Shown: one piece after another, positions 13,743-30,264 of the stretch
How positions within the stretch are numbered: position 1 is the first letter of the stretch
Layout: every line of letters begins with the position of its first letter
Assembly: GCA_022709525.1 (NCBI GenBank)
Contig: JAKLIQ010000002.1
Location: 262,003-326,002, forward strand
Length of the DNA stretch: 64,000 bases
Origin: Candidatus Omnitrophota bacterium
Lineage (GTDB): Bacteria > Omnitrophota > Omnitrophia > Omnitrophales > Aquincolibacteriaceae
Reading direction: 5' to 3'
The notes under the pieces: generated by a model
What the model was told of the DNA's origin: nothing
What the model saw: the letters and a program-made list of their open reading frames with translations, nothing else
Database searches by the model: none
Program-made: the position numbers and the translations under genes

Positions 13743-13880
13743 TTCAGCCCCCGCTAGAAATTGTTAAAGGTTCATCCAAGGTTTTATAGTGTAGCAAAAA
13801 GAACGGAATGCTCCAAGCGCGGTTTTAACTGACATCGGTGCATTTTAGCCCGCGAAGGTTCCGGCAAAGTCGCGTCTTGA

Positions 13881-14059: not shown

Positions 14060-14154
14060 GAAAGCCGAGCGATGACTTTCACGCTGGGAAAGTCGAGCGT
14101 CGGCTGAGCCGGAGGCCTGAGCAAAGGCTAAAAGGTGCAAGGGTCTGGGCGCGC

Positions 14155-15630
14155 TTAGGCCTTGAAGTCGAAGAGGTGGGCTTGCCAGGGTCCGAGGTCC
14201 GCGTAGAGCCCTTTTTCCGAAAGCTCCTGGCCCGTGCGGTCGTAGGTTTTGTCGGTCAAAGCGTCCTTGAACTGGATAAAGAATTTCCGGTTGAGGAATT
14301 CAGGAAGGCGGATAAAGGCCTGGGCGCGGATCAGAGAATAATTGATGACGACAAGCTTCCAGTGCTGGCCTTCGCCCCAAAGCCAGGCGAGGATCGCCTG
14401 ATAAGTCTCGTTCTTTTCCCAGGCGGATTTTGTTTCCAGCAGTATCCAGTCGCCACAACGGGTCACGGACCCTTTCGTGAAACGCAAAAGGCGGCGGTAA
14501 GCGTCGCTGATCACGGGATCCGCCGGCTCCCGGGGTTCGCGCCTTAAGTGGATGGGCGTACGGATCCTTCTTCCCTCAAGCTGGCCGTCGTGAAAAAAAC
14601 GAAGCCCCGGAACGGTCGCGGTGATCATTCCCGCGGCTACGGATTTTTTCTTCCCGAAATTCACCGTTGCCCGCTCCTCATCGTGATTTTCGATGAAGCG
14701 GAGGCACTTATCGCGATAATCCGGTTCCGCCCTTAAATGGTCCCGCACGGAAACAGAAGAATCAAAAAACATCCTGTCATAAAGACGCTTGTCATAGGTA
14801 AAATCAAAACCCAGCTGCTGGAGGGGCCAATCCAGGTCCCAATAAACTTCGGCGATGAAGATAAAATGAGGCGCGGCCTTTTTCACTTCCGGGATCACCT
14901 CCGACCAGAATTCCGTTTCGGGCCGGGTTTCCTGGATGTGCTCGCCCCATACTTTCTGGAATACATCGTTCATGCCCAGCATCGCCATATCGCAACGCAC
15001 GCCGTCGGCGACCTTCGCAAGACTAAGCAGTTGGGTCCGCCAGGCCTCGCGGGCCGCGAGAGACCAGAAATTGATCTGGGCCGTATCGATCCAGGGCGGG
15101 AAATACGGATCGCGGCCATGCGCGATCTTTTTACCGTCAGGCGTGATAAAAGCCCAATCCGGGTGGGCCCGAAGGGTCTCCGGGCGGCAGGAAACGAATA
15201 CCTCTGGCCGCTCCAAGGTCCAGGGATGGTCGATGGCGAGGTGGTTTGGGACAAAATCAAGTACCAATCCGAGCCCGAGGCCGTTTAGCTTTATTTTTAA
15301 GGCCAGCAGGTCCTGTGGCGCGCCGAGATAGGGGTCCAATGTATAACCGTAGATCGCATAGGGGGAACCCGTCACATCCTCTTTTTTCCAATCCGGCAGG
15401 ATAAGATCGTAAGCCCGGCAAAGATTGGGCTCTTTCGCGGCGTGGGCGCGGGCCCAGGGGCTGCGGGTCCAAACACCCATGAGCCAAAGATAATCAAAAC
15501 CCTGGTCCGCAAAAACCTTCCATTCCTCGGCCGGAACGGTCAAAAGCGTCATGCGGCGCCCGTATTTTTCGGACATGCGGGAAACGAAAAAAAAGGCGTT
15601 CAGTTCAAGAAGCTGCGGGTGTTTTTTCAT
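14155..15630 (-). CDS. alpha-amylase-family (GH13) glycoside hydrolase
   Basis: GH13 region I LVLDFVPNHLAIDHPW and further catalytic-domain similarity. Substrate specificity unknown. Confidence 0.7.
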   Translation of the reverse strand: MKKHPQLLELNAFFFVSRMSEKYGRRMTLLTVPAEEWKVFADQGFDYLWLMGVWTRSPWARAHAAKEPNLCRAYDLILPDWKKEDVTGSPYAIYGYTLDPYLGAPQDLLALKIKLNGLGLGLVLDFVPNHLAIDHPWTLERPEVFVSCRPETLRAHPDWAFITPDGKKIAHGRDPYFPPWIDTAQINFWSLAAREAWRTQLLSLAKVADGVRCDMAMLGMNDVFQKVWGEHIQETRPETEFWSEVIPEVKKAAPHFIFIAEVYWDLDWPLQQLGFDFTYDKRLYDRMFFDSSVSVRDHLRAEPDYRDKCLRFIENHDEERATVNFGKKKSVAAGMITATVPGLRFFHDGQLEGRRIRTPIHLRREPREPADPVISDAYRRLLRFTKGSVTRCGDWILLETKSAWEKNETYQAILAWLWGEGQHWKLVVINYSLIRAQAFIRLPEFLNRKFFIQFKDALTDKTYDRTGQELSEKGLYADLGPWQAHLFDFKA

Positions 15631-15713
15631 GGTCCTTTCCCATAAGTCCTGCGACTATGGTTATCGGTCCCCTCTTGGATTTCCTTTATGAATCCTTCGA
15701 AAGACGGCGTTTT

Positions 15714-15760
15714 GAAAATAAAAAAGGCGCGGGCGACAATATCGTCCCGCGCCTTAAAAA
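15714..15760 (-). terminator. intrinsic terminator (usable in both directions) between the wHTH gene and the GH13 gene
   Basis: An 8-bp GC stem GGCGCGGG...CCCGCGCC (15726-15753) is flanked by an A-run on the plus strand. On the minus strand this gives a U-tract UUUUUUAUUUUC. Confidence 0.5.
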
Positions 15761-15782
15761 GATCGCTGGAATCCGTCAGAGT

Positions 15783-16001
15783 TCAGCCCTTAAGGAGGGA
15801 CACCTTAACGCTTTTACCCATTTTGTTGAAATTGATGTTATTTTCGCGGGCGAGCCAGCCGATCGCCTGATAGAACAAACCCTCTTCGACGCCGATCTCT
15901 TTTGAGAGCTTGGCCACTGTCATTTCGCCCTTTTGTTCCAAGGCCTTGTAGATCTTGCCCGCCGTTTCGCCGATCCCGTAATACTGTTCCTGCATGATCA
16001 T
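15783..16001 (-). CDS. small winged-helix DNA-binding protein (72 aa)
   Basis: MTVAKLSKEIGVEEGLFYQAIGWLAREN resembles a winged HTH. It lies between the GH57 and GH13 genes. Weak call. Confidence 0.4.
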   Translation of the reverse strand: MIMQEQYYGIGETAGKIYKALEQKGEMTVAKLSKEIGVEEGLFYQAIGWLARENNINFNKMGKSVKVSLLKG

Positions 16002-16034
16002 TCCCTTTCTGGTGTTTTCTCTAAGTTAGGATGA

Positions 16035-17612
16035 TTAAAAGACCCCGGCATCCACATCCGGAAAGATATTGTCTTTTGATTCCAGTTCCCTGAGCCATCC
16101 TTCATCAAGCCGGTGGTTCATCAGGTCCTCGTAGATCCTGGTAAAGTTCAGGAGGTGGTCCTTGGTCCGCTTGACCGCGTAAGGCACCATCGTGCCCGTG
16201 TGCATGATGAAGGCCCAGTCGCTTGATTGCGCGAGGAAAAGTTCCCTGGCCGCCTGTTTGAGCGCGCGGCCGGCCGTGCCGTTCTGGCCGCGGAATTTTT
16301 CGGTCATCTCGGTCATGCGAAGCGATGCCTTGTGCAGATGCCGGTAGACCCAATCGTTGGCGCCGGAAAGCCAGGTCTCGCTATAGCCCTTCCATCCCCA
16401 GCTGGAAAAGCACGGGGTGGATACCTGGTTGACCGGGTACTCTTTGAAATAATCCGACGGAGCGATCAAGCGGAACATTTTTTGATCGTAGGCCGTCTTC
16501 CGTATGAAGAAATTCAGGAATTCCGGACCTTCATACCACCAGTGGCCGTAAAGCTCCGCGTCGTAGGGCGCGACAATGAGCGGCTTGCGACCCATGAAAT
16601 CATGCAGGTATTCGATCTGTTTTTCGCGGTTGAACATGAAGTTGGCGGCATGGCTCGCGGCTTTCTGCATCGCCCAGCCCCGCACATAAGGTTCTTTGTG
16701 CTCGGTATTGCCGGTGATGCGGTGATATTTGATACCGGTGTTGACGCGCAAACCGTCGGGCGAAATATAAGGACGGATATATTCGAAATCGAGCTCAAAA
16801 CCGATATCGCGGTAGAATTCGCGGTAATCGGGATCGCCCGGATACCCTTCAATGGCCGACCAGACTTGCTTGGAGGATTCCACGTCGCGGCCGAACGCAG
16901 CCACGCCGCTGGGGCAGAAGATCGGAGCGAAGACGCCGTATTTGGGCCGGGGCGAAGCGTGCAGGATGCCGTGCGTATCGGTCAGGAAATAACGGATGCC
17001 TTGTTCTTTCAGGTATTTATCCACACCCGGATAATAACCGCATTCCGGAAGCCAAATACCGATCGGCCTGCGGCCGAGCACTTTTTCGTAAAGTTCCGCG
17101 GCGGTCTTGATCTGGCCCCGCACGGTCCCCTCATTGCGACTGATCAGCGGCAGAAAACCGTGTGTCGCGGCGCAGGTGATGATCTCGAGATGCCCGCGAT
17201 CCTGGAATTTCCGGAAGGCCTGCGTGATGTCTTTATGATAACGGTTCGCGAAGGTATCTTTGGCCCGCGTGAATTCCCAATAATAGTGGAGCGCGGTCTC
17301 GTGGAATTGCGGTTGGAAACGCGTCCGCTCGATTTCCTTGTTGGCCAGCTCGATCAGCTTGTCAAGATGGCGAAGATAGCGGTTCTGCAAAAGTTCGTCG
17401 CGAAGCATTGACATGAGTGAGGGCGTAAGCGACATGGTAAGGCGCCAGGGAACCTGGTCACGCTCAAGCGCTTCGAACATGTGGATGAGCGGAATGTAGG
17501 TCTCGGTGATCGCCTCATAAAGCCAGGCCTCTTCCAGGAAATACTCATGCTCCGGATGGCGGACGAACGGCAGATGCGCATGGAGGACTATGGAAAGAAA
17601 ACCTTTTTCCAT
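16035..17612 (-). CDS. GH57-family 1,4-alpha-glucan branching enzyme
   Basis: N-terminus LSIVLHAHLPFVRHPE and overall GH57 / DUF1957 (C-terminal domain of unknown function) branching-enzyme architecture, 525 aa. Confidence 0.8.
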   Translation of the reverse strand: MEKGFLSIVLHAHLPFVRHPEHEYFLEEAWLYEAITETYIPLIHMFEALERDQVPWRLTMSLTPSLMSMLRDELLQNRYLRHLDKLIELANKEIERTRFQPQFHETALHYYWEFTRAKDTFANRYHKDITQAFRKFQDRGHLEIITCAATHGFLPLISRNEGTVRGQIKTAAELYEKVLGRRPIGIWLPECGYYPGVDKYLKEQGIRYFLTDTHGILHASPRPKYGVFAPIFCPSGVAAFGRDVESSKQVWSAIEGYPGDPDYREFYRDIGFELDFEYIRPYISPDGLRVNTGIKYHRITGNTEHKEPYVRGWAMQKAASHAANFMFNREKQIEYLHDFMGRKPLIVAPYDAELYGHWWYEGPEFLNFFIRKTAYDQKMFRLIAPSDYFKEYPVNQVSTPCFSSWGWKGYSETWLSGANDWVYRHLHKASLRMTEMTEKFRGQNGTAGRALKQAARELFLAQSSDWAFIMHTGTMVPYAVKRTKDHLLNFTRIYEDLMNHRLDEGWLRELESKDNIFPDVDAGVF

Positions 17613-17614
17613 AG

Positions 17615-18613
17615 CTATTTGTGCTTTCCTGCTTTTAGGACAGGCGCGGGCCTTTCTGTATTGCGGCTAACGATCGGGGTGATGACCCTCTCTTCGACGC
17701 CGTCGGCAGATTCGGCGTGACAATCAAAAATGAACTTTCCGTCCGGAAGCCCGTAGCGCAGCGTGAAAGTGCCGTCCGGACGGAGCTGGACGGGCCTTCC
17801 CTGCATCGTGACCTTGGCGTCGGGTTCGGTGCCGCCGTAGATGATAAGCTCGCATTCAAGCCAAAAACGGAAACCGCGCTGCTTGATGCGGACAGGGCTT
17901 GAAAGACTTGAAACGGCGCCGGCTCCCGAGCCCGAGGTGATAGCGCTTTTGAGGCGCTCTTCCATGAGCTTGCGAAGCTCCGCCGAGCTTTTACCGACCT
18001 GAAATCCTCCCGAAAGGGCGTACATCTTGTCAAAATCAATCGACATCCACTGTTCGTCGATCACTTCCGACATGCCGGAGCGGGGGGTCGTGACGCGATT
18101 GGAACGGGCAAGGCAGATAAAGCGGCCGTCGCGGTGCAAGAGGCCGATCTCGACAAAATAGCTCCGGTTCGGCTGCGTATTGATGTACCAGCTTTTGGCC
18201 ATATTCTGAAGGACAATATCAAAAAATGAATGGCTCTTCCCGTCTTCCGTGACATCGTAGACCCGGAGCACGGACACAACGTTCTCCCAATTGCCGCCCA
18301 ACTTTGAAAGATGATGGCGCTGGTGGCCTTCCTGGATCTCCCAGTAAGCATAGATCCAGTAGGGGTCGCGCACGAGCAGGTAGATCTGGTTATCGCCGTA
18401 ATTATCCGGGAGTTCGCGCGGCATTTCTCGGACGGGCTGCGGTTCGAACCTGGGCGGCGCTACGATATTTTCCGGAATATCAAGAACGATCTCTTTGGGT
18501 TTGGGAACGGCTACGGATTTTTTTGTGACGGGGACCCGCTTACGAGTGGATGCGGCTGGTTTTGTCGACGGTTTTTTTTCTGCCCGAATTTTCTTGCGAG
18601 GCGATAGCGCCAT
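17615..18613 (-). CDS. DUF4912-domain protein (commonly adjacent to GH57 glycogen genes)
   Basis: Lys/Pro-rich N-terminus and a conserved core YLLVRDPYWIYAYWEI. Its stop directly abuts the GH57 start. Confidence 0.65.
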   Translation of the reverse strand: MALSPRKKIRAEKKPSTKPAASTRKRVPVTKKSVAVPKPKEIVLDIPENIVAPPRFEPQPVREMPRELPDNYGDNQIYLLVRDPYWIYAYWEIQEGHQRHHLSKLGGNWENVVSVLRVYDVTEDGKSHSFFDIVLQNMAKSWYINTQPNRSYFVEIGLLHRDGRFICLARSNRVTTPRSGMSEVIDEQWMSIDFDKMYALSGGFQVGKSSAELRKLMEERLKSAITSGSGAGAVSSLSSPVRIKQRGFRFWLECELIIYGGTEPDAKVTMQGRPVQLRPDGTFTLRYGLPDGKFIFDCHAESADGVEERVITPIVSRNTERPAPVLKAGKHK

Positions 18614-18836: not shown

Positions 18837-19445
18837 CTAGAATTTTTCAAAAAGGATCAAATAACACGCCACCAGAACAAGGGTTACGGCGGAAAGACGG
18901 CTGATAAGAGAGTGGTTCTTTTCCGTCCATTGATCGAGCTTTTTGAGGAGAAAGAACGCCAGCGGGACAAACCAGAGCATCGCGCCGATCACAAACCCCC
19001 CGAGGAAAAGCTCCTTGAACCAAGGTTGGCGAGTCTCCGGAAAGCGGGCATGGAGAAAACCGATGATGGCGATCCACATTAAAAAAACAGCCGGGTTGGT
19101 GATCACGACCAGGAAACCGACCAGAAAATTCCGGGTCGGGTTCCGCTTGCTGACCTCTTCGTTCTTCGGGAGCGGTTTGCCGTGGGTCCAAAAAACGCGC
19201 GCCGCCAGGATCAAGAGTATCGAGATGCCGACCCATCGGATGATCCCCCACCATTCCGGATGCTCCAACAGCGGGCGGGTCCCTTTAAAACCGATCCAAA
19301 GAAAGATCATATCGGCCGTGACCGATCCGCATCCGACAAGAAAAGCCGCGATCTTTCCGCGCCGGAGCCCGCGATGGATCATAAGCAGGTCGATCTGCCA
19401 ACCGAAACAAGAAGCGAGAAAACCGGCCACCATACCCAACAACAT
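18837..19445 (-). CDS. LysE/RhtB-type small-molecule exporter (6-TM)
   Basis: About 200 aa with 6 TM segments and a RhtB-like FLVGFLVVITNPAVFLMW motif. Start placed at internal ATG 19445, which overlaps the pssA stop as TAATG. Confidence 0.5.
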   Translation of the reverse strand: MLLGMVAGFLASCFGWQIDLLMIHRGLRRGKIAAFLVGCGSVTADMIFLWIGFKGTRPLLEHPEWWGIIRWVGISILLILAARVFWTHGKPLPKNEEVSKRNPTRNFLVGFLVVITNPAVFLMWIAIIGFLHARFPETRQPWFKELFLGGFVIGAMLWFVPLAFFLLKKLDQWTEKNHSLISRLSAVTLVLVACYLILFEKF

Positions 19446-20194
19446 TACGCGCCTCCTTCTTGCGGCGGAGCGTCGTGATCCCCGTTCGGCAAGAACCGCT
19501 GCGAGGAGATGCAATAAAATGGCGAAAGCACGAGGAATGTCAGAAATACGGCCGCGATCGCGCTTTCGATATTAAGAAAGAAGAACATCGTCGCAAGAAC
19601 GACCACCTGGACAAAAAACAGCGTCCGCCAGGAACGGAATTTTATGGCGGAGATCTTAGGGTAAGGAATGTCGCTGATCATGAGAAATCCGAGAGCGGTC
19701 ATCAAGAATACGACGGTCACAAGAGAGAAAGACCGGTCGGTCCAGTGATTTTTATAGAGAGCCAGCATGGTCATCATAAGCGTCAAGGCCGCGGCGGGGG
19801 TCGGAAGCCCCTCAAAGCATCCGCCGTGAATGGGGTTGACGTTAAAACGCGCCAAACGGAAGATACCCGAGCAGAGATAGAACACCACGATCAGGAGGAA
19901 GACAAAAGAAACATTCAAAAAAAACACTTTCGAGACAAGCATGCAGGGCGCCACCACGAACGAAACGGCGTCGGCTAAGGAATCCAGTTCGCGCCCGAAT
20001 TGGGTCTCGTTGCCGAAGATCCGCGCGACGTGGCCGTCCAGGGAATCCAGGATCAAAGCAAGAAAAACCAGCCAGACCGCGTACTCATATTTTTCCTGGA
20101 CGCTCATCAGGATCGACATGAAGCCCGCGACGAGATTGAGCATGGTGATCATGTTCGGAAAAGCGGCAGTCGTGAAATAGAACCGGTTTTTCAT
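19445..20194 (-). CDS. pssA: CDP-diacylglycerol--serine O-phosphatidyltransferase (phosphatidylserine synthase, CDP-alcohol phosphatidyltransferase family)
   Basis: CDP-OH-P-transferase motif DSLDGHVARIFGNETQFGRELDSLADAVSF and multiple TM segments. 3-nt gap to psd. Confidence 0.85.
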   Translation of the reverse strand: MKNRFYFTTAAFPNMITMLNLVAGFMSILMSVQEKYEYAVWLVFLALILDSLDGHVARIFGNETQFGRELDSLADAVSFVVAPCMLVSKVFFLNVSFVFLLIVVFYLCSGIFRLARFNVNPIHGGCFEGLPTPAAALTLMMTMLALYKNHWTDRSFSLVTVVFLMTALGFLMISDIPYPKISAIKFRSWRTLFFVQVVVLATMFFFLNIESAIAAVFLTFLVLSPFYCISSQRFLPNGDHDAPPQEGGA

Positions 20195-20197
20195 CTT

Positions 20198-20845
20198 TCA
20201 GGCCTCATCGTTCCATTGGCCCAGGACCGTGATGCCGGCCGCAACATGCTGCTTGACCTTGATATCCGCCCGGAACATTTTCGCCGGAATAAAGATCTCG
20301 ACCCCGGACCCGTAGCAGATCATCCCGATCTTTTCGCCGCGGCCCGCGACCTGTCCGATCGTCACATCCGAATAAATGCGCCTCGCGATCGCGCCCGTCA
20401 TTTGGCGCACAAGAACGCGGCGCGCGTGGTTTTCGATCCCGACCCAATTGGATTCATTATGGTCAAAAGCTTCCTTCCGTAAGGCATTCAAAAATTTTCC
20501 TTTAACATAATGTTGGTATTTTACGATGCCGGCCAAAGGCGATCGCGTGACATGCACGTCAAAGATCGAAAGAAAAATGCGGATACGGACCGCCGGACCG
20601 CGGAGAAACCGGTCTTCAAAGACCTCATCGACCCCGAGGACTGTGCCGTCCGCGGGGGCCAACAGGCCTTGGGCTGCGGGCGGGTCGCGGCGCGGGTCGC
20701 GGAAGAAAGCTAAATGCGCGAAAAGAAGAAATCCTAGGGCCGGCAATCCGAATGGAACCGGCCAGACTCTCTCCAAAAGGATCAGAGCGCCGAGGAGGAG
20801 GACTCCCGGCCAAACGCGTTTATCGAAAGGGATCTTGGGTCTCAT
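20198..20845 (-). CDS. psd: phosphatidylserine decarboxylase (short, archaeal-type Psd family proenzyme)
   Basis: 215 aa PSD family with LGS-type self-cleavage-region context (MICYGSGVEIFIP). Its ATG overlaps the stop of the upstream radical-SAM gene as ATGA. Confidence 0.8.
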   Translation of the reverse strand: MRPKIPFDKRVWPGVLLLGALILLERVWPVPFGLPALGFLLFAHLAFFRDPRRDPPAAQGLLAPADGTVLGVDEVFEDRFLRGPAVRIRIFLSIFDVHVTRSPLAGIVKYQHYVKGKFLNALRKEAFDHNESNWVGIENHARRVLVRQMTGAIARRIYSDVTIGQVAGRGEKIGMICYGSGVEIFIPAKMFRADIKVKQHVAAGITVLGQWNDEA

Positions 20846-22461
20846 GGTGCGGCAATAACAGGGGTCTTTTCTTTGTTCTTCGGTTCAAGGTGCTCCGCCG
20901 AAGACCCGTTCGCGTCTTCAAAAGGCGGTTTTTTCGGATCTTGCCCTTCCGGAACCCCCTGAGTTTCGATGACGTATTGCCGAAAAGCGCGATGCGTCCC
21001 GATCCATCTGAAGAATTCCAGCCACTTCCCCATCGAGAACGGTCCGCCCTTGGCCACGCGCCAAAAGGTCCCGGCAAAAAACTTCATGCGCTCAAAATCC
21101 AGGGTCAGCAAATAATAAGCCAGCAATTTGAACAACAAAGAAATAAATTTAAAATCAAGCGACGCGCGCTTATGCTCGGGGTTGAGGTTCCTGAAACGGC
21201 TCAAAGCCGTTACCAAACGGTCGCCATAGGCATCATAACGATAGAGGCACCGGCTCAGCCAGTTATACCCTTGATGGATCTCCTGAAGGGTCATGTTTTT
21301 GGGGATAAAATTACAGTCGGAAGACCCATGCCCGTTCATTTCGGTCCATTCCAGATCCAGCATCCGCCCTTCCGCTTGAAGTCGTTTCATAAGAGGCGTA
21401 TTCGGAAGCGCCATCAGGGTCCCGCAGGTTGTGAACGGGATCCCGAGCTCCTGGAGGAAATCAAAGGTTTCCTTAAAAATACTCTTGTCGTCAGAGTCAA
21501 AACCCACGATCATCCCGGCTACAACGGTCAGGTGATAGGAGTGGATGCGCTTGATATCTTCCAGGACATTTTCCCGGGTGTTCTGCACCTTGCCGGATTC
21601 CAAAAGACTCGCCTTGCGGGGCGACTCGATCCCGATGAAAAGCGCGTAGAAATTGGCCGCCTGAAAAAGCTCCAGAAGGTCCGGATGATGCGCGACATTG
21701 ATGGTCAGCTCGCACGAGAATTCGATCGGATAACCGTTCTTTTTGGAATAATCCGCGAGCGCCTTGAGAAGTTCCCGGGCATAAGGGATATTGCCGATGA
21801 AATTCGCGTCACCAAAAACGATGTAGTGAGCGCCTTGTTTGACGCAGTGATCGACCTCGGCAAGGACTTGGGCGATCGTCTTGGTGCGCGGCACGCGGCC
21901 GTCCATGATGATAATGTCACAGAATTCGCAATTGTAGGGACAGCCGCGGCTTGTCTGAAGCGAGAACATATTGTAAAGATGTCCCCGGATGAGATCGTAG
22001 CGCGGCGCGGGACTTTGGCGGATATCCACTTTTCTTGGGGCCTTGTAGAGCTCGCGCGCCTTCCCAGCTTCAAAATCACGAAGGAATTCCGGCCAAATCT
22101 CTTCGGCTTCTCCGGCGATCCGGTGATCGCATTTACCCTCGAAGGATTCGGGAAAGAGACTGCAATAAGGGCCGCCGACCACCACTTTTTTGCCGCGCTT
22201 GCGGAATTCCGCGATGATCTCAAGCGCCCGGTGATATTGAACATTGAATGCGCTAACGGCAACGAGATCAGCGTCTGTTTCGAAATTGATCGCCTCCACA
22301 TTCTCATCGGCGATCTCGACGTTCCAGGAGGTGGGCGTGAGCGCGGCGACCGTGCAGATCCCCAGCGGGGTGGTGGAGAACTTCGTCCCCGTCAGGGATT
22401 GAAGTCCCTCGAACGACCAGATGGTCGGTTGAAATTTGGGATTAACAATGTAAACTTTCAA
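20842..22461 (-). CDS. class-B (B12-binding domain) radical SAM enzyme with C-terminal DUF4070
   Basis: N-terminal cobalamin-binding Rossmann-like domain (DLVAVSAFNVQYHRALEIIAEFRKRGKKVVVGG) and a radical-SAM cluster motif CPYNCEFC. Long C-terminal domain follows. Confidence 0.85.
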   Translation of the reverse strand: MKVYIVNPKFQPTIWSFEGLQSLTGTKFSTTPLGICTVAALTPTSWNVEIADENVEAINFETDADLVAVSAFNVQYHRALEIIAEFRKRGKKVVVGGPYCSLFPESFEGKCDHRIAGEAEEIWPEFLRDFEAGKARELYKAPRKVDIRQSPAPRYDLIRGHLYNMFSLQTSRGCPYNCEFCDIIIMDGRVPRTKTIAQVLAEVDHCVKQGAHYIVFGDANFIGNIPYARELLKALADYSKKNGYPIEFSCELTINVAHHPDLLELFQAANFYALFIGIESPRKASLLESGKVQNTRENVLEDIKRIHSYHLTVVAGMIVGFDSDDKSIFKETFDFLQELGIPFTTCGTLMALPNTPLMKRLQAEGRMLDLEWTEMNGHGSSDCNFIPKNMTLQEIHQGYNWLSRCLYRYDAYGDRLVTALSRFRNLNPEHKRASLDFKFISLLFKLLAYYLLTLDFERMKFFAGTFWRVAKGGPFSMGKWLEFFRWIGTHRAFRQYVIETQGVPEGQDPKKPPFEDANGSSAEHLEPKNKEKTPVIAAP

Positions 22462-22512
22462 GAAGGATCCGTTCTGTATTTTTTAAAAATCATGGTATCC
22501 ATGGGCGCACGT

Positions 22513-24603
22513 TTAATGTTTTCTCAAAAAGATCCCGGAGATCAGGATGGAAAGCAGGAACCGGACGAACAGGACCGATTCCTCGACCGTTGCAAAAAAA
22601 AGACGGATATAATTGATCCCCCAAATGTTCCCGCGTTTCCAGGCGCTCCCGACATTTTCCCAAAAATGCTGCAGAGGAGCGCGCGTAAAAGTCAGGCGGA
22701 GTGAAAAAATATTCCACTTGTCAAGCCAGAGCCGGAATCCGGAGGGGGTCCGGAACCGGTAGACGCCTTTTTTCTCAAGCGACGCGGCGGCCTTCCGGTA
22801 AAGATTTTGAAGTTCTGAAACGCGAAGGTCGCGCCATTCTTTGGCGCACTGGGTCAGACGAGCGATCTCGGCGATCACTTTTTGTTCCAGCGGCCCGCGG
22901 CGGCGCGTTGCGAGCCAGACCTCTTCAAGCTCCAGCGCCAGTTTCCACCGTCCCCTCATCGCTCGCAGGATGTCGGAACATCTTCGTTTGAAATAGGTCC
23001 AGCGATCCTCGATCGGATAACCCGAGCGACGCTCCAGGCGTCCTTTCAAGCGGAAAAACCCGCAGATCATCGGATGCCCGCCTTCCACGTCGATGGAATT
23101 CTTATACCACATGAAATTCGAAAAAATACCCCAGTAATTATCTCCCTTGAGGTCCCTTGCCAGGATCCGCCTCATATTTTCCGTGCTGTAAAAGGTCTGC
23201 CAGGCGGCTTCATAAGCGGCAAGCCATTCCCCGGGTTTCATTCGGGGATGGCGGTGAGTCTCATGGAATGTGTCGTAGTTATTAAGATCGGCGTCCAGCA
23301 GCATCCCTTTTTCTAAAGCATTTTTGTAATCCATGGAACCCGGGAGCGGCGTCATCATGAAAAATGACGCTTGCCCGGCGCCGAACGACATCAGTTTTTC
23401 AACATCCTGTCTGACCGACTCCGCGGTGTCCAGGGGAAATCCAATGATGTAGGCTAAGTGGCAAACGACATCCACTTCATGAAAGGAATCCACCAGTTTT
23501 TTAAAATTCTCGATATCGTTCTGGTTCTTCTTCGCCGCTTTGAGATTTTCCTGGTTCAAGCTTTCGATGCCGATAAAGACTTGGCGGCAGCCGGCTCGGG
23601 CGGCTTTTTCCACAAAATTAGGTACCGTGTGGGCCTGAGTGTCCAGCTGCATCATGAAATGGAACGGGATCCCCTCTTTTTCCTTCAATTCGATAAGCCG
23701 GTCCAGGATCGTTTCCCAGTTCTTGTGGCGGCAGAAATTATCATCGGTAAAAAAGTAATGCGAAATGTTGTGACGGCGATAATCCTCGCGGATCCTCTGG
23801 ATCAGGAGATCCACGTCGCGGAAGCGCATCTTACGGCCCTGAACATTGATCACGGTGCAGAAACTGCATCCGAAGGGACATCCGCGGCCGCAATCAAGCG
23901 TCCCGAAGTGTTCAAGCGCGTAATGCTTCTGGTGTTTGGGGTTGATCCTCGGGAACGGGGCCTTGGAAATATCCGGGATATCGTTCAGGAAATTATAAAC
24001 GGGGCGGAGGCGGCCTTGCATCGCGTCACGAAGCAATCGCTCCCAGTGACCGCCCTCGGCCTCGCCGGCCACAAGGATCACGCCGGCGTTCTTGAGCGTC
24101 ACAAGTTCCGGGGAAAGATCCGGCAAGGTCGCCATGATGCCGCTGACATGAAACCCTCCGATCAGGACATCGATCCCCGCTTTTCGAAATTTTATCGCGA
24201 TATCGGAGGCGCGCGGAAATTGATTGGACTGGACCCCGACCAGACAGATCACGGTCTTGGTTCCGGCTTGGCGATCCTTCCGGGCGATCTTCCGGTAAGG
24301 GATCTTTTGGACCGTATCATCGATGAGCGTGATATCCCATGCCAGGTCCTTCCCCAGGACCTCGCGCTCACGGACATCCTCACTAAGACCGTTCAGGCAG
24401 GAAAGCGTATTGCTTGGCAGAACGCCCTTCCAGTAACGGATCAAATAGCCCTCGTCATCGTACTTGGAGGGCTTGATCAGATAAAGGCAGAGGCGCTTGT
24501 ATTTGTGAGAACAAGTTCCGGCAGGCCCTTCGCCTTGAGCTTCAAAAGAGGCTCCCGAGGCGCGGCCCAATTCAGAGGTTATGGGATTTTCTCGAATTTG
24601 CAT
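22513..24603 (-). CDS. class-B (B12-binding domain) radical SAM enzyme, long form (~696 aa)
   Basis: B12-binding domain (TKTVICLVGVQSNQFPRASDIAIKFRKAGIDVLIGG), a radical-SAM motif CGRGCPFGCSFC, and a ~250-aa C-terminal extension. The first ~35 residues look non-conserved, so the true start may be internal or non-ATG. Confidence 0.85.
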   Translation of the reverse strand: MQIRENPITSELGRASGASFEAQGEGPAGTCSHKYKRLCLYLIKPSKYDDEGYLIRYWKGVLPSNTLSCLNGLSEDVREREVLGKDLAWDITLIDDTVQKIPYRKIARKDRQAGTKTVICLVGVQSNQFPRASDIAIKFRKAGIDVLIGGFHVSGIMATLPDLSPELVTLKNAGVILVAGEAEGGHWERLLRDAMQGRLRPVYNFLNDIPDISKAPFPRINPKHQKHYALEHFGTLDCGRGCPFGCSFCTVINVQGRKMRFRDVDLLIQRIREDYRRHNISHYFFTDDNFCRHKNWETILDRLIELKEKEGIPFHFMMQLDTQAHTVPNFVEKAARAGCRQVFIGIESLNQENLKAAKKNQNDIENFKKLVDSFHEVDVVCHLAYIIGFPLDTAESVRQDVEKLMSFGAGQASFFMMTPLPGSMDYKNALEKGMLLDADLNNYDTFHETHRHPRMKPGEWLAAYEAAWQTFYSTENMRRILARDLKGDNYWGIFSNFMWYKNSIDVEGGHPMICGFFRLKGRLERRSGYPIEDRWTYFKRRCSDILRAMRGRWKLALELEEVWLATRRRGPLEQKVIAEIARLTQCAKEWRDLRVSELQNLYRKAAASLEKKGVYRFRTPSGFRLWLDKWNIFSLRLTFTRAPLQHFWENVGSAWKRGNIWGINYIRLFFATVEESVLFVRFLLSILISGIFLRKH

Positions 24604-24610
24604 GGGGACG

Positions 24611-24732
24611 GATTATAACCCAATTCCCCACCAACTCCTAGAAATGGTTTCCACCGCACGCCGTACGTGGTAGGTGGTAGGCAGTAGGTCATTTCAATCA
24701 ACCCACCACATACGACTTACCACATACTGTTC
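24611..24732 (-). promoter_or_regulatory. intergenic region with short direct repeats and a -10-like box upstream of the long radical-SAM gene
   Basis: Minus-strand reading shows GTATGTGGT twice (5-nt spacer), CCTAC three times, and TTATAAT 8 nt before the ATG. Confidence 0.3.
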
Positions 24733-25254
24733 CTAAAATTCGACCCCGGGTTGGGCCGGAACACCGCGATCAAAAGGATGCTTCACGCATCTCATTTCGG
24801 TGACAAGATCGGCGGCTTTAAGAAGGGCCTTGGGAGCGCCGCGGCCTGTCAGGATCACATGCTTCGTTTTAGGTCTTCGCCGAAGCGTCCGGATCACGCC
24901 CGGGATGTTCAGGAATTTATATTTAAGGGCAATGTTGATCTCATCAAGGATCACGAGCGCGTACCGGGGATCGCGCAGCAGCTGAACGCATTTTTTCCAG
25001 GCATCCCGCGCGGCTTTGAGATTTTCTTTCCGCGAAGTTTGCCAGGTAAATCCGCCGCCGAAACTCCAAACCTTGAATTGAGTATGCGGCAACATGTGGC
25101 GGCTTGGCGCTTTAAAAAATTGCACCATCGCGACGCGTTTGCCGTGTTTGATCATACGGACGGCCGATCCTACGGCGGCGGTTGTTTTCCCCTTCCCATT
25201 ACCGGTAAAAACCAGGATCAATCCTTGTTCCCGCTTCGCTTGCCGTATTTTCAT
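24733..25254 (-). CDS. cobA: cob(I)yrinic acid a,c-diamide / cob(I)alamin adenosyltransferase (CobA/BtuR/CobO family)
   Basis: Near-colinear with E. coli BtuR: ILVFTGNGKGKTTAA...VQF.K...L...FTW...DE......L....VI.TGRG. 5-nt gap after the TonB-dependent receptor. Confidence 0.85.
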   Translation of the reverse strand: MKIRQAKREQGLILVFTGNGKGKTTAAVGSAVRMIKHGKRVAMVQFFKAPSRHMLPHTQFKVWSFGGGFTWQTSRKENLKAARDAWKKCVQLLRDPRYALVILDEINIALKYKFLNIPGVIRTLRRRPKTKHVILTGRGAPKALLKAADLVTEMRCVKHPFDRGVPAQPGVEF

Positions 25255-25259
25255 TTCTG

Positions 25260-27350
25260 TTAATACTCCAATGAAAGACCGGACACGAATCCGCGCCCTT
25301 GAGCCGGATAATATCCTACCTGATTTGTACCGGAACTGTAACCGGCATATTCGGAATATTTCATATCAAAAAGGTTCGTCAATGACGCCCACGCCGTTAC
25401 CCAACGCCAGTGGTAACGGGCCTTAAGGTCCACGGTCGTATAGGCCTTAACTTTGGCGGCGTTATTGGTCGGATCGCTAATGGCGAAACGGCTGCTTAAG
25501 TGATTCAATTCCGCGGAAACCGTGAACCCCTTGACCGGCTCGGCGACGAATCCTGTCGCGTATTTGAATTCCGGCACGAAAGGAATGATCTTATTGGCGT
25601 AATCCCCGCCTTTAAAGTAGGGCTTTTGGACCGTCAGGTTGAAAAACGGTTTGATGTTGAACCAGCGTTTTTCAAAAAGCTTCAAGGAGGATTCCATTTC
25701 AAAGCCGTAGCGGCGCGTCGGAGAAATATAGTTGGAGTTCGCGAAGGTAAGCGGGTCGTAATAAAGCTCATCTTTGATGTCCGCTAAGAAAACATTCATG
25801 GCGACTTGAAGGGGTTTGTAGGTGTTATCACGAATGCCTAACTCATAATTCATTTCCTGTTGCTGCTTGAGTCCCGAATTCAGACCACCCGCCACCGGGC
25901 CCGTCCAGGAGATATAGGTATTCTGGTAGAATTCTTCGGTGGTCGGCGTTCGGAAAGAACGCGAAATATCAAAATAAGCGATAGAACGTTCGTTGTAACG
26001 GAACCCGATCCCGAAATCGAACGCCGGATCGCGCATGCTCGCCGTGTCGCGATTGGTCAGAGCGGCGGTCTGATTGAACCAGTAATTGGTCCATGCCCCT
26101 CGGAACCCGAGATTCAGAAGAAGTTTGTCCCAGAAAGTCAGGGTTTCGAGGATATAAACGCCGAGCGATTTTTTGGTGATATGAACTTCATCCTGGCCGG
26201 GCGCGCGATTGCCGCTCCGGATGCTGTCTTGGGCCGAAAAAAGATCGATCCCGGTCGTCATCTTGCTTGCCAGCCAATCCGTCAGGCGATACGTCCACTG
26301 GATCTTGGGCTGGAATTCATAAGTATCGATATGATGGATCGTTTCCCAATCGCCCCACGTGGATACAGAACTCCCTTTGCTTTGCCGGCGCCGGAATGAA
26401 TTGAACGCGGAAAGTTCAAAACCGTTCTTTCCAAGTTCAAAGCTCCACTTAGGGTCCGCGGTAAAAAAAGTCTCCTCGGTCCAGCCGCGGTCCTGCGAAT
26501 GCGTGCTGCCCCTGCGACCGATCGATTCAATGTCGTTCATAAAAAGCGCGCCGGGCATACCGTAGCGGTCTTTGTGAAAACCCGCTGTGAGATCCAGTCC
26601 CGCGCCATAAAAGGGCCCGACCCCGAGCTTGCCGAACCAGTCATTGGCCCAATAATCCGTATTGGTGCGCCAGCCGCCGTCCTGCGTATTTTCAAAATGA
26701 AAAGAGCCGCGGGCCCAATCGGTCGCCGCGGACACGGTCCCGCCGTTACGTTTATATTTATGGAGACCGATCTCGGTCTCGGCCTTTGCGTGGATCCCCG
26801 GTTCGATTTTTTTTGTGACGATATTGATCACGCCGCCCGCAGCGTTGTCGCCATATAGCACGGCAGAAGGACCGCGAATGATCTCGATGCGGTCAATGAT
26901 CGAGAGCGGAATCGCCGCCCAATCGGTGCCGGAAAGATCGATCTGATTGGTCCGGCGCCCGTCCACAAGAACAAGCACGTTCGTCCGGCCCGATTCCCCA
27001 AACCCGCGAATGTCGACCGACATGCCTTTGGGATTATCCTCCGTTTTGGTAACGACGATCCCCGCTTTAGATTTCAAAAGGTCGGGCACATAAAGCGCGG
27101 TGGAATTTTGGATCTCCTCCTGATCGATCACGGAGATGCTGCGGGTAATGTAAGAGCTTGAGTCGTCGGAACGGGTCACTTCCAGATGGATCGTATCCTG
27201 CGGGGTTTTTCCTTCTTCGACTTTCTTGGAAGTGTCCTGCGAAGATCCGTTCTCGGCGACCGGTTCCGGTGTTTCTATTTTTGGTTTTTGGGCCCAAACG
27301 GACGGGCTTAGAAAAAAACAAAGGATGCAAACTAAGAAAATCTTTTTCAT
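25260..27350 (-). CDS. TonB-dependent outer-membrane receptor (BtuB-like corrinoid receptor candidate)
   Basis: Signal peptide, a plug domain (IVVTKTEDNPKGMSVDIRGFG..NVLVLVDGRR) and a C-terminal beta-barrel. It is preceded by a cobalamin riboswitch. Confidence 0.8.
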   Translation of the reverse strand: MKKIFLVCILCFFLSPSVWAQKPKIETPEPVAENGSSQDTSKKVEEGKTPQDTIHLEVTRSDDSSSYITRSISVIDQEEIQNSTALYVPDLLKSKAGIVVTKTEDNPKGMSVDIRGFGESGRTNVLVLVDGRRTNQIDLSGTDWAAIPLSIIDRIEIIRGPSAVLYGDNAAGGVINIVTKKIEPGIHAKAETEIGLHKYKRNGGTVSAATDWARGSFHFENTQDGGWRTNTDYWANDWFGKLGVGPFYGAGLDLTAGFHKDRYGMPGALFMNDIESIGRRGSTHSQDRGWTEETFFTADPKWSFELGKNGFELSAFNSFRRRQSKGSSVSTWGDWETIHHIDTYEFQPKIQWTYRLTDWLASKMTTGIDLFSAQDSIRSGNRAPGQDEVHITKKSLGVYILETLTFWDKLLLNLGFRGAWTNYWFNQTAALTNRDTASMRDPAFDFGIGFRYNERSIAYFDISRSFRTPTTEEFYQNTYISWTGPVAGGLNSGLKQQQEMNYELGIRDNTYKPLQVAMNVFLADIKDELYYDPLTFANSNYISPTRRYGFEMESSLKLFEKRWFNIKPFFNLTVQKPYFKGGDYANKIIPFVPEFKYATGFVAEPVKGFTVSAELNHLSSRFAISDPTNNAAKVKAYTTVDLKARYHWRWVTAWASLTNLFDMKYSEYAGYSSGTNQVGYYPAQGRGFVSGLSLEY

Positions 27351-27397
27351 TTTTTACCTTTCACGCGAAGGAAAACCCGGCCGTTGTCTCCTGGCTC

Positions 27398-27520
27398 TTG
27401 GCAACCTACTCTCCGGCCTTCCCGCCTTTTTCAGGCAGTGGCCTCAAGGATTTCGTTCCAAGTTACAGTTGCGCGGCAGCAACGGATTTGCACCGTTTTC
27501 CGAAAACCGTCCGGATCCGC
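27398..27520 (-). promoter_or_regulatory. cobalamin (B12) riboswitch upstream of the TonB-dependent receptor
   Basis: Minus-strand RNA reads GGUGCAAAUCCGUUGCUGCCGCGCAACUGUAA...GAGGCCACUGCCUGAAAAAGGCGGGAAGGCCGGAG. This matches the conserved GGUGC, AAUCC, GCCACUG (B12 box) and GGGAAGGCCGG elements. Confidence 0.75.
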
Positions 27521-27521: not shown

Positions 27522-28274
27522 TCATGTTCCTTTCTTGAAATAGGTTGAATGTGACGCTACCGAAAAAAATTCCGCGATCCTTTCCGGCCGTAAAAATTCC
27601 CCGGCAGGACCTGTCGCGGCCATTTTCCCCGAGCGGAGCATCACAACACGCCCGAGAAAAGGCTTCAGCCATTCCCATTGATGCGAGATCACGGCCACGG
27701 TCAGCTTTTCGCGCTGCTGTAGCCGCGTCAAAAGTTCAAAAAGGCCGATCTGCTGACGGATATCAAGATTGGAGACCGGCTCGTCTAAAAGAAGGATCTT
27801 AGCCTGCTGGCAGATCGCGCGGGCGATCTCAACGCGCCGCCTTTCGCCGCCGCTTAATTGAAGGATCGAGCGTTTGGCGAAACGCAGGGTGTCGGTCGCT
27901 TCCATCGCCCATGCGGCGCGCTCAAGATCCTCTTTGCGGTTCCAAAAACCGTGGGGCGCGTTCGGGAACCTTCCCATCAGGACCAGCTCCTCGACCGTGA
28001 ACGGAAAAATATAGGCGGCGTCCTGCTCGAGATAAGCCGCTTTGCGCGCGATCTCCAAGGCATTCATTCTTTCAACCGGGTTTTCAAAAAGAAAAGTTTT
28101 TCCCGAACGCGGCCGAAGCCAGCCAAGCGCGAGTTTAAAAAGTGTGGTTTTTCCGGCGCCGTTTTCGCCCAAAAAAAGCGTCATGCTCCCTTCTTCGAGC
28201 GAACATGAGAATGAATCGATATGAAAAGCGCTCCCGTATTGAAAGCTGACATCGCGCCACTCGACAGCGTTCAT
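27522..28274 (-). CDS. btuD: ABC transporter ATP-binding protein (cobalamin/iron-siderophore type)
   Basis: Walker A GENGAGKTT, ABC signature LSGGERRRVEIA and Walker B ILLLDEP. Start at internal ATG 28274, which overlaps the btuC stop as ATGA. Confidence 0.85.
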   Translation of the reverse strand: MNAVEWRDVSFQYGSAFHIDSFSCSLEEGSMTLFLGENGAGKTTLFKLALGWLRPRSGKTFLFENPVERMNALEIARKAAYLEQDAAYIFPFTVEELVLMGRFPNAPHGFWNRKEDLERAAWAMEATDTLRFAKRSILQLSGGERRRVEIARAICQQAKILLLDEPVSNLDIRQQIGLFELLTRLQQREKLTVAVISHQWEWLKPFLGRVVMLRSGKMAATGPAGEFLRPERIAEFFSVASHSTYFKKGT

Positions 28275-29251
28275 GAGATCACCCGTTTTCCTTCGCGCCT
28301 TTTGAGGATGACGATAAAGAACGGAACGCCTAAAAGGGCTGTCACGATCCCGACGGGGATCTCCGAAGGATAGAAAAGAGAACGCGCGAGCATATCGGCT
28401 CCGGCCAAAAGAACACCGCCGGCCCAAGCGCTCACGGGCAGGGAGCGGCGAAGGTCCGAACCGACAAAAAGCCGGGCGACGTGCGGGCTCATCAGCCCCA
28501 CAAAGCTGATCATGCCGCTTAAAGAGACCGCCGCGCCTGTCAGGATCGCGGCGGCGATAAAAAGAAGGATTTGGGTTTTTTCGACGCTTACGCCGAGCGA
28601 ACGGGCGGCGGATTCTCCCAGCGAAAGCAGGTTCAGTTTCGGCGCTTGCCTCATGAAGAAAAACCCCACGATACCGAGCGTGATAAATAAAAAAAGGATC
28701 TGAGCATAACCTGCCATGGACAAATTCCCTAAAAGCCAGTTAAAAGCTGCCGCGGTATCGTCGGAACGGAAAAGCGACTGGCAAAAAAGCATCAGCGACA
28801 CTAAAAAGGAATTGATCATGACGCCGAGAAGAAGCAGCGTGTACATGGAAAGCGCGCCTTTGCGCATGGAGAGCAGGAAAACAAGAAAAAGCACCGCGAG
28901 GGCCCCCAGCCCGGCAAATACGGGGAAAAATGAGAAGGAGAACCCAAACACCGCGCAGATCCATACTCCCGCGCCGGCGCCGGCGGAAACTCCGATCAAA
29001 TGCGGGTCGGCCAGAGGATTCCTGAAAAGGGACTGAAACACGGCGCCCGTCACCGCAAGCGACATCCCGACCCCCCAGGCGAGCAGGAAACGCGGTAATC
29101 TTAAATAAAAAAAGAGGAACCGGTCCTGTTCGCTCGCAAGGTCAAGAAGCCCGCGAGGACCGACAAGATTTAAAAAGAGCAAGCCGGCGGGGATAAACAT
29201 CAAGATGAGAAAACTCCGCAGCGCCCGTTTAGACATGGATCTTCTCCGCAT
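28271..29251 (-). CDS. btuC: FecCD-family ABC permease (BtuC-like)
   Basis: About 9-10 TM segments and FecCD-family similarity. Confidence 0.85.
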   Translation of the reverse strand: MRRRSMSKRALRSFLILMFIPAGLLFLNLVGPRGLLDLASEQDRFLFFYLRLPRFLLAWGVGMSLAVTGAVFQSLFRNPLADPHLIGVSAGAGAGVWICAVFGFSFSFFPVFAGLGALAVLFLVFLLSMRKGALSMYTLLLLGVMINSFLVSLMLFCQSLFRSDDTAAAFNWLLGNLSMAGYAQILFLFITLGIVGFFFMRQAPKLNLLSLGESAARSLGVSVEKTQILLFIAAAILTGAAVSLSGMISFVGLMSPHVARLFVGSDLRRSLPVSAWAGGVLLAGADMLARSLFYPSEIPVGIVTALLGVPFFIVILKRREGKRVIS

Positions 29252-30167: not shown

Positions 30168-30264
30168 AGCCTGTCTTGACCTCTGCTCGGAGGCATTTTA
30201 AAAATCTCAAATCTGAAATTTGAAATTTATGGATAATGGGTTGATATTCTGACTAGGCAAGTAC

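Follow-up and report, generated by a model that had tools for sequence, protein, structure and literature searches.

What do two radical S-adenosylmethionine (SAM) enzymes do in a gene string that also encodes the synthesis of phosphatidylserine (PS) and phosphatidylethanolamine (PE)? The question is raised by a 64-kb stretch of DNA (the window, meaning the whole stretch analysed) from Candidatus Omnitrophota, a phylum of very small bacteria, widespread and uncultured, that may depend on hosts. Its minus strand carries, at 18837-24603, five close-packed open reading frames (ORFs): rSAM-1, rSAM-2, psd, pssA and lysE. Judged from their sequences, rSAM-1 and rSAM-2 are members of two large, well-conserved and uncharacterised class-B families outside the curated ones. 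The conserved unit is the rSAM-1/rSAM-2 pair itself, found across several Omnitrophota lineages before four different downstream genes, and its junction with psd-pssA is specific to one lineage: it justifies testing for a lipid role, as a lead and not as an established function. We read the pair, tentatively, as enzymes that C-methylate a membrane lipid with the help of cobalamin, and a non-lipid substrate is at least as likely. The five genes are the following.

22513-24603, minus strand: rSAM-1, 696 amino acids (aa); Rossmann N-terminal domain, CxxxCxxC core, and a helical C-terminal region whose last helix is hydrophobic
20842-22461, minus strand: rSAM-2, 539 aa; B12-binding, radical SAM and DUF4070 domains; TTG start
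20198-20845, minus strand: psd, phosphatidylserine decarboxylase (short type); Pfam PS_Dcarbxylase 113 bits (cut-off 22)
19445-20194, minus strand: pssA, CDP-diacylglycerol--serine O-phosphatidyltransferase; TIGR00473 135.3 bits (cut-off 107)
18837-19445, minus strand: lysE, LysE-family exporter; Pfam LysE 74.7 bits; 6 or 7 hydrophobic segments

Class-B architecture and family membership

That both proteins are class-B-type radical SAM enzymes, as the original prediction held, is borne out, for rSAM-2 already by Pfam and for rSAM-1 only by structure and profile comparison. rSAM-2 reaches 42.2 bits for B12-binding (PF02310; cut-off 32.1), and its matches to Radical_SAM (69 bits) and DUF4070 (45 bits) are likewise above the cut-offs, so that the shorter protein does carry the DUF4070 domain ascribed to it and has an HpnP-like three-domain architecture. 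rSAM-1 reaches 60 bits for Radical_SAM (PF04055; cut-off 29.5 bits). The expected CxxxCxxC motifs are found as CPYNCEFC (C174/C178/C181) in rSAM-2 and CPFGCSFC (C242/C246/C249) in rSAM-1, their cysteines invariant in alignments of 16 homologous sequences; besides these, the alignments show only 2-3 scattered invariant cysteines. The N-terminal cobalamin-type Rossmann domain proposed for both proteins is recognised by Pfam in rSAM-2 only. In rSAM-1, for which Pfam gives no B12-binding match even at E<=10, it is detected by structure model, Foldseek and hhalign. The AlphaFold2 model of rSAM-1 (predicted local distance difference test, pLDDT, 71; predicted template modelling score, pTM, 0.69) has in order a beta/alpha Rossmann domain at residues 37-204, the radical SAM barrel and the helical C-terminal region, and Foldseek matches it best, among PDB entries, to AprD4, TsrM, CysS, TokK, MgmA and OxsB (E 6e-14 to 3e-10), with 430-690 columns aligned to TsrM, TokK, CysS and OxsB. 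Comparison of the two families by hhalign gives a probability of 99.9% (E 6.8e-33, 26% identity) over rSAM-1 68-458 and rSAM-2 53-422, which takes in part of the Pfam B12 domain and the start of DUF4070. Since this profile-profile match runs across domains, rSAM-1 and rSAM-2 are understood as distant paralogues with the same class-B architecture.

Against NCBIfam, both proteins match about twenty class-B families at 20-84 bits, compared to curated cut-offs of 250-775. The scores of rSAM-1 and rSAM-2, respectively, are 37 and 34 bits for HpnR (TIGR04367, cut-off 650), 71 and 45 bits for HpnJ (TIGR03471, cut-off 577.6), 63 and 27.5 bits for BchE (TIGR02026, cut-off 481), and 57 and 78 bits for the ladderane-type B12/radical SAM family TIGR04072 (cut-off 360), placing both proteins outside these families. 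They fall equally outside the PhpK/Sden_1168 P-methyltransferases, KedN5, the TsrM-type enzymes and MgmA (TIGR04014), with 22-77 bits against cut-offs of 360-700. Profiling against characterised class-B enzymes, the check suggested by the original prediction, has thus returned only generic class-B similarity and joins neither protein to BchE, HpnR, HpnJ or the TsrM type; a curated family assignment was rejected on the same evidence from NCBIfam and Pfam. Literature on the two families, on functions of DUF4070 and on methylases of branched glycerol dialkyl glycerol tetraethers (brGDGTs) offered nothing specific.

The best 120 homologues of each protein come almost entirely from Omnitrophota or from unlabelled metagenomes, at identities of 55-100% for rSAM-1 and of 57-99%, typically about 70%, for rSAM-2; an rSAM-1 identical to that of the window is annotated in a Candidatus Omnitrophota metagenome. 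More widely, rSAM-1 is represented by 486 clusters (50% identity) at E<=1e-30 in a library of 1.8 billion proteins. Uncultured Acidobacteriota of soil and peat (Candidatus Acidoferrales, Acidoferrum, Angelobacter) account for a large clade at 45-49% identity, and the names of cluster members of the distant rSAM-1 representatives reveal no function. Relatives of rSAM-2 at 35-49% identity are spread over Acidobacteriota, Planctomycetota, Binatia, Spirochaetes, Myxococcota, some Proteobacteria and Mycobacterium.

There is precedent for lipid modification by B12-type radical SAM enzymes in HpnP, HpnR, GrsA/B and Gmm (PMC13459092, PMC10697835), and the combination of B12-binding, radical SAM and DUF4070 domains that characterises HpnP is found in rSAM-2, not in rSAM-1. 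One could therefore regard rSAM-2 as an enzyme that, like HpnP, methylates a hopanoid or another isoprenoid lipid, and rSAM-1 as a second isoprenoid-modifying enzyme. Its three-domain architecture, as in HpnP and the 'HpnP-like' clades (PMC10697835), would agree with this, as would the distribution of its 35-49% relatives, largely in hopanoid-rich groups (Acidobacteriota, Planctomycetota, Acetobacteraceae, Hyphomicrobiaceae, Burkholderiales), and the squalene-hopene cyclase (SHC) reported at low frequency in Omnitrophota (PMC12324291). We consider the idea quite improbable, however. The models of HpnR, HpnJ and BchE score far under their cut-offs, neither SHC nor any hpn gene occurs in the 64-kb window or in any related locus examined, and the rSAM-2 family is near-universal among Omnitrophota matches, whereas SHC is rare there. 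In addition, Hoshino et al. 2023 (PMC10697835) describe the same architecture as common to many uncharacterised non-HpnP 'HpnP-like' clades, whose proteins are not known to act on hopanoids.

Tail-to-tail coupling was a further candidate chemistry of the original prediction: one or both enzymes would join acyl tails end to end, yielding diabolic-acid or membrane-spanning lipids, in the manner of Tes and Mss on a B12-type scaffold. The operon context with PS/PE synthesis is in keeping with it, Tes and Mss use radical SAM chemistry (PMC13459092, PMC13159169) and, Mss homologues being reported in just 15 of 267 Omnitrophota metagenome-assembled genomes (PMC11868695), another route to such lipids is conceivable. 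Neither protein matches Tes by sequence or by fold, however. The sequence search of the PDB at E<=0.01 retrieved remote class-B enzymes only and no Tes for either protein; Tes (7TOL) is outside the top Foldseek matches of both, with no likeness beyond the common barrel. Neither rSAM-1 nor rSAM-2 has a further set of conserved cysteines comparable to the auxiliary clusters of Tes, no known class-B enzyme does intermolecular tail coupling, and a 2026 review in Nat Prod Rep treats Mss under the bacterial Tes homologues with no B12 domain noted. Tail coupling finds no family support in the two sequences; it is not favoured, and we give it very little credence.

The conserved pair, its junctions and the psd-pssA link

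Among the related loci (cited by our locus numbers), the pair is placed upstream of psd in the window, L001, L081-83, L166 and L167. It precedes ilvD in L163 (rSAM-1 59% identical), a small ORF and glycogen phosphorylase in L169, and a 935-aa protein without known function in L170. Because the pair is kept before these four different downstream genes, rSAM-1 and rSAM-2 very probably work together. Solitary copies of rSAM-2 are found by genes for MprF, a UbiH-like hydroxylase and a 4HBT thioesterase (L161/162), by a DesA-type desaturase gene (L164/165), and with ppk on one side and AcrB on the other (L171).

The psd-pssA link is not unique to this genome, as the original prediction had allowed it might be, since it recurs in L001, L081-83 and L166-L168; it is confined to one Omnitrophota sub-clade with a single inferred origin. 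L166 (rSAM-1 71%) repeats the full arrangement, with TonB receptor, btuFCD and cobO upstream and DUF4912, GH57, DUF2582 and amylase genes downstream, and L167 (67%) has rSAM-1, rSAM-2, psd, pssA and lysE together with glycogen genes. L168 (61%), which is devoid of rSAM-2 and lysE, passes from rSAM-1 to psd with a 4-nucleotide (nt) overlap and from there to pssA. rSAM-2 and psd/pssA accompany rSAM-1 in only the 3 closest (74-83%) of 80 metagenome rSAM-1 loci (43-83%). In a neighbour-joining tree of 83 rSAM-1 homologues, the psd-linked loci make up one clade, with L163 as its sister and a thioesterase-linked clade next. From these relationships the linkage looks as if it arose once and was kept in one sub-lineage (rSAM-1 identity 61% or more). 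As evidence of a functional tie, the adjacency to psd-pssA is weak.

On the downstream side, a glycogen/alpha-glucan string occupies positions 11235-18613 of the window (minus strand) and comprises genes for DUF4912, a GH57 branching enzyme, DUF2582 (a winged-helix protein, 15789-15995, minus strand), an alpha-amylase-like protein and glycogen phosphorylase. Up to the amylase-like gene, this string keeps its synteny with the psd-pssA block in L166, L167 and L168; L168 has the phosphorylase too, and L081 was matched only up to DUF2582. Loci whose rSAM-1 identity is just 61-83% still share 85-92% identity in GH57. Directly 5' of rSAM-1, L167 (1-4469) and L168 (1-6866) have ORFs of >1,970 and >3,085 aa that run off the loci, in agreement with the giant proteins reported in Omnitrophota.

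A recurrent partner of the wider rSAM-2 family was sought in 79 non-Omnitrophota loci, and beyond scattered Crp-type regulators and histidine kinases none emerged. Neighbours of the closest rSAM-2 relatives (Spirochaetia, Binatia) include SRAP, a xylose-isomerase-like TIM barrel, FtsX, an M23 peptidase and a thiamine pyrophosphate enzyme. For the wider rSAM-1 family, the candidates for a conserved partner reduced to lineage-specific synteny, with tilS-hpt-ftsH-folP in the Acidoferrales and with a hotdog thioesterase gene in a single clade of Omnitrophota. In uncultured Acidobacteriota of the Candidatus Acidoferrales and their relatives, the homologue of rSAM-1 (45-49%) is located just upstream of the housekeeping string tilS-hpt-ftsH-folP, in some loci with an aldo/keto reductase gene between; loci of this type are L108, L114, L116, L117, L119-L121, L126, L130-L133, L135, L138, L139, L141, L145, L147, L152, L153 and L155.

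The individual junctions in the window were read from the sequence. ATGA at 20845-20842 overlaps the rSAM-2 stop with the psd start, psd (TGA) and pssA (ATG) are separated by the 3-nt spacer 'aag', and in TAATG at 19447-19443 the pssA TAA and the lysE ATG have one base in common, with the ribosome-binding site GAAGGAGG just 5' of the latter. The two stop-start overlaps, the 3-nt gap and the single tightly packed string of rSAM genes with psd, pssA and lysE are hence as first described. The coupling claimed for the tandem rSAM genes holds for rSAM-2 with psd; rSAM-1 and rSAM-2 themselves lie 51 nt apart and do not overlap. Regarding the two lipid genes, NCBIfam models of phosphatidylserine decarboxylase score at most 185 bits for psd, under the equivalog cut-offs (185 vs 225), and YGSG in its translation is a candidate G-S self-processing site; the pssA translation contains the CDP-alcohol phosphatidyltransferase motif D-x2-DG-x2-AR-x8-G-x3-D-x3-D as DSLDGHVARIFGNETQFGRELDSLAD.

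The original prediction went further and took the tight coupling to argue for stoichiometric co-production with PS/PE synthesis. This does not hold. In bacterial operons, overlaps of four bases are the most frequent kind, and the window has three ATGA overlaps (rSAM-2/psd; btuC/btuD, 28274-28271; OEP/AcrB, 54069-54072) as well as many further junctions of 2-5 nt, for example GH57/DUF4912 and cobO/TonB. Because 4-nt overlaps are routine in the window, tight spacing makes no argument for stoichiometric co-production. The rSAM-2 start is TTG or GTG in 7 of the 7 loci compared, within (T/G)TGAAAGTyTAT (22459-22461 in the window), and no obvious Shine-Dalgarno sequence is found 5' of it in the window spacer. 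The use of a codon other than ATG seems to be conserved and could perhaps set translation of rSAM-2 below that of rSAM-1. A 14-codon mini-ORF, MDTMIFKKYRTDPS, at 22458-22502 (minus strand) has its TGA overlapping the TTG start of rSAM-2. It was rejected as a coupling device; the overlap is probably coincidence, because the rSAM-1/rSAM-2 spacer is not conserved in six related loci.

Transcription and cobalamin supply

Upstream of rSAM-1, the window contains the following elements.

24612-24651, minus strand: promoter-like block; GAAACCATTTCTAG at 24651-24638 and TATAAT at 24617-24612, 8 nt before the ATG
24663-24727, minus strand: imperfect long hairpin in the cobO/rSAM-1 spacer, from RNA folding
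24733-25254, minus strand: cobO/btuR, ATP:corrinoid adenosyltransferase; CobA_CobO_BtuR 193 bits, NF004637 213 bits (cut-off 185)
25260-27350, minus strand: TonB-dependent receptor (BtuB-like); Pfam Plug and TonB_dep_Rec_b-barrel
27386-27501, minus strand: cobalamin riboswitch before the TonB receptor-cobO genes; Rfam RF00174 80.3 bits (gathering score 31.5)
27522-30131, minus strand: BtuF/BtuC/BtuD-type ATP-binding cassette importer by Pfam, with Peripla_BP_2 at 29229-30131, FecCD at 28271-29251 and ABC_tran at 27522-28274
30222-30412, minus strand: cobalamin riboswitch before the importer; Rfam RF00174 39.9 bits (gathering score 31.5)

The sequence AAAACCATTyCTAG, about 20 nt, GTATAAT, 8 nt and ATG are in register across five loci (window, L081, L082, L166, L167), in which the rSAM-1 start codon is conserved and the genes 5' of the block differ. 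This alignment supports one packed string with a conserved promoter-like element of its own before rSAM-1. We infer from it that rSAM-1 to lysE form their own transcription unit outside riboswitch control, with the transcription start deduced from the same element; the mRNA would probably be leaderless or nearly so, and the block is possibly a conserved regulator site. The btuB-cobO unit under riboswitch control is unlikely to share this transcript, since rSAM-1 has the promoter-like block before it also in loci that lack cobO. The end of cobO lies 129 nt from rSAM-1. The spacer (24604-24735) folds at -46.5 kcal/mol (z = -2.17 vs shuffles), and its hairpin, which is not conserved in other loci, may be a terminator or insulator after cobO.

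cobO is directly upstream of the rSAM operon in L082 and L166 as well, and L166 has its B12 genes in another order (TonB receptor, TonB_C, btuFCD, cobO). An MFS_3 gene flanks rSAM-1 directly in L163 and is found beyond the B12 cluster in the window (30470-31807); it would seem, then, that the B12 import/cobO cluster came to lie between the two in this sub-lineage. Its placement fits, as circumstantial evidence, rSAM-1 and rSAM-2 being B12 consumers. In the same circumstantial way, the adjoining uptake genes, cobO and riboswitches hint at cobalamin use by the two enzymes, and methyl transfer is likewise putative.

A different chemistry must be weighed here. AprD4, the closest solved structure to both rSAM proteins, has a B12-like fold and makes no use of cobalamin. 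rSAM-1 and rSAM-2 could in the same way be class-B in fold only and catalyse a dehydration, isomerisation or ring formation, irrespective of what their substrate is. The lack of a Pfam-detected B12 domain in rSAM-1 would suit this proposal. Arguing against it are the B12-binding score of rSAM-2, above the Pfam cut-off, the proximity of the pair, in three loci, to cobO and to B12 uptake genes under riboswitch control, and the methylases CysS, MgmA, TsrM and TokK, which score nearly as high as AprD4. On balance we think the cobalamin-free proposal unlikely.

Far from the rSAM operon, the window includes an nhaA-I RNA at 63126-63178 (minus strand; Rfam RF03057, 48.9 bits vs gathering score 37), which Rfam lists among the cis-regulatory riboswitches. 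It is upstream of a gene for an MscS-type mechanosensitive channel (62050-62934), and a second MscS-type gene is at 63247-63945.

Substrate of the pair and comparison with known systems

The statement of the original prediction that the substrate cannot be read from sequence stands, and what remains are hints. The C-terminal helix of rSAM-1 has a Kyte-Doolittle value of 2.03 (residues 673-695; about 2.0 over 19 residues), which fits a putative peripheral membrane association. Elsewhere in the family this helix is amphipathic (about 1.0-1.5 in most members), and a true C-terminal transmembrane anchor was rejected as a family feature, only the window's clade being consistently at 1.6 or more. 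A PaaI/MenI-like hotdog thioesterase gene (~137 aa) comes right after rSAM-1 in L084, L085, L086, L088 and L105, and a related one two genes after rSAM-2 in L161/L162; these Omnitrophota lineages are without the psd linkage, and the 64-kb window has no copy of the thioesterase. A DesA-family desaturase is encoded beside rSAM-2 relatives in three phyla, represented by Omnitrophota (L164/165), Acidobacteria (L069) and Isosphaeraceae (L032), and MprF upstream of rSAM-2 in L161. Together with the psd-pssA operon, these hints lean to an acyl or lipid substrate, each of them weak if taken alone, and a prenylated quinone would fit them too. In the rest of the window, which has the make-up of an ordinary chromosome, no further lipid genes were found apart from glpK and glpD. 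Genes for a glpD-like flavin adenine dinucleotide-containing glycerol-3-phosphate dehydrogenase, a glycerol kinase (FGGY) and a DAC-domain protein (c-di-AMP cyclase) are arranged in a row at 36229-40148 (minus strand), the sole others in the window that touch glycerolipid precursors.

On the tentative reading of lipid C-methylation, a chemistry that the original prediction had also proposed as lipid-tail methylation, the pair would act on one hydrophobic, membrane-resident substrate, likeliest a glycerophospholipid acyl chain or another membrane lipid. Reductive cleavage of SAM would give the 5'-deoxyadenosyl radical, which would abstract hydrogen from an unactivated carbon; a methyl group would then pass from methylcobalamin to that carbon, as in TokK, CysS and MgmA, and methylcobalamin would be regenerated from a second SAM. 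The two enzymes might serve different positions or different rounds. In this lineage, the rSAM module would have joined a housekeeping psd-pssA operon, with the effect that modification and PS/PE synthesis are co-transcribed, an arrangement of convenient co-expression and not of obligatory stoichiometric coupling.

Several observations weigh against a lipid substrate and its methylation. Among 79 non-Omnitrophota genome loci of rSAM-2 relatives, none has psd, pssA or a relative of rSAM-1 within 10 kb, and psd/pssA are absent from the vicinity of about 75 rSAM-1 relatives. The psd/pssA linkage is that of a single rSAM-1 clade, which also keeps DUF4912-GH57-DUF2582-amylase in synteny; inherited gene order therefore suffices to explain it without a functional tie. 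Neighbours of lipid type are few and each is weak, and there are neighbours of clearly other kind (tilS-hpt-ftsH-folP in Acidoferrales, ppk, AcrB, ilvD). The conservation of rSAM-2, at about 70% in the listed Omnitrophota homologues, is also consistent with a macromolecular or cofactor substrate. The best structural match, AprD4, works without cobalamin despite its B12-like domain, and B12 use and methyl transfer are putative here; in the literature, no lipid data for Omnitrophota were found.

A non-lipid substrate, be it a cofactor, a quinone or tetrapyrrole intermediate, a protein or an RNA, with the psd-pssA adjacency inherited from one ancestral rearrangement, accordingly has what we judge to be nearly an even chance. 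The single psd-linked clade and the functionally unrelated glycogen genes syntenic within it agree with this explanation. So do the placement of the pair elsewhere before ilvD, a phosphorylase or an unknown gene, the solitary rSAM-2 between ppk and AcrB (L171), the Candidatus Acidoferrales relatives of rSAM-1 upstream of tilS-hpt-ftsH-folP, and the routine occurrence of ATGA overlaps in the window. A high conservation is typical of housekeeping modification enzymes, and the UbiH-family hydroxylase and MenI/PaaI-like thioesterase near some copies could hint at quinone chemistry. It is less easily reconciled with a linkage that holds down to 61% rSAM-1 and 50% psd identity, with a tight junction re-formed in L168 where rSAM-2 is missing, with the hydrophobic C-terminal helix on rSAM-1 and with the recurrence of desaturase, thioesterase and MprF neighbours; moreover, no conserved neighbour points to a specific non-lipid pathway.

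The lipid reading can be narrowed to a new bacterial system that, with cobalamin, methylates or otherwise alkylates unactivated carbons of phospholipid acyl chains at the PS/PE stage, giving mid-chain-branched lipids in Omnitrophota, and the two families could then include the methyl-branching enzymes of brGDGTs. The link to brGDGTs is suggested because rSAM-1 relatives abound in soil and peat Acidobacteriota, and rSAM-2 relatives occur in Acidobacteriota and Planctomycetota. In this specific form we regard the proposal as unlikely. To our knowledge, cobalamin-type radical SAM enzymes are the only oxygen-free route to methylate or cyclise saturated lipid tails, and all characterised lipid examples that we know of act on hopanoids or archaeal isoprenoids. 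If true, a pair that acts on the usual phospholipids of bacteria would open a new branch of lipid biochemistry and supply candidate genes for the orphan branched lipids of anoxic sediments, and enzymes of brGDGT methyl-branching would bear on palaeoclimate proxies. Even with a non-lipid substrate, the analysis defines two uncharacterised class-B families that form a two-gene module. Orphan enzymes of this kind number thousands, and the rSAM genes by lipid genes provide an experimental lead from the gene order of one lineage and one evolutionary event.

Comparison with characterised systems puts the pair among related chemistries. AprD4 (PDB 6FD2), the radical SAM 1,2-diol dehydratase of apramycin biosynthesis, is 16-19% identical to the rSAM proteins; it acts on an aminoglycoside without cobalamin, and is without DUF4070 and the C-terminal helical regions of the rSAM proteins. 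TokK (7KDX), CysS (9N1B), TsrM (6WTE) and MgmA (9CCB), at 13-22% identity, use as substrates a carbapenam, a pantetheinylated small molecule, tryptophan and a protein glutamine, respectively, and none of them comes from a phospholipid operon. Tes (PDB 7TOL) and Mss are radical SAM enzymes on complete membrane lipids. Unlike rSAM-1 and rSAM-2, they belong to another radical SAM sub-family, with extra Fe-S cluster domains and without the Rossmann/B12 domain. GrsA/GrsB and Gmm, compared by description only, are archaeal class-B enzymes that cyclise or methylate the tails of glycerol dialkyl and glycerol monoalkyl glycerol tetraethers (GDGT/GMGT) at unactivated carbons of the finished lipids; their genes are frequently paired paralogues or members of lipid gene clusters, and their substrates are isoprenoid. 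HpnP and the 'HpnP-like' proteins (PMC10697835) resemble rSAM-2 in the domain order of B12-binding, radical SAM and DUF4070. rSAM-2 differs from HpnP in having no hopanoid genes nearby, in being paired with a longer paralogue and in being joined here to psd-pssA, and the idea that it shares with HpnP, putative for rSAM-2, is that of a cobalamin-type radical SAM enzyme at work on a membrane lipid.

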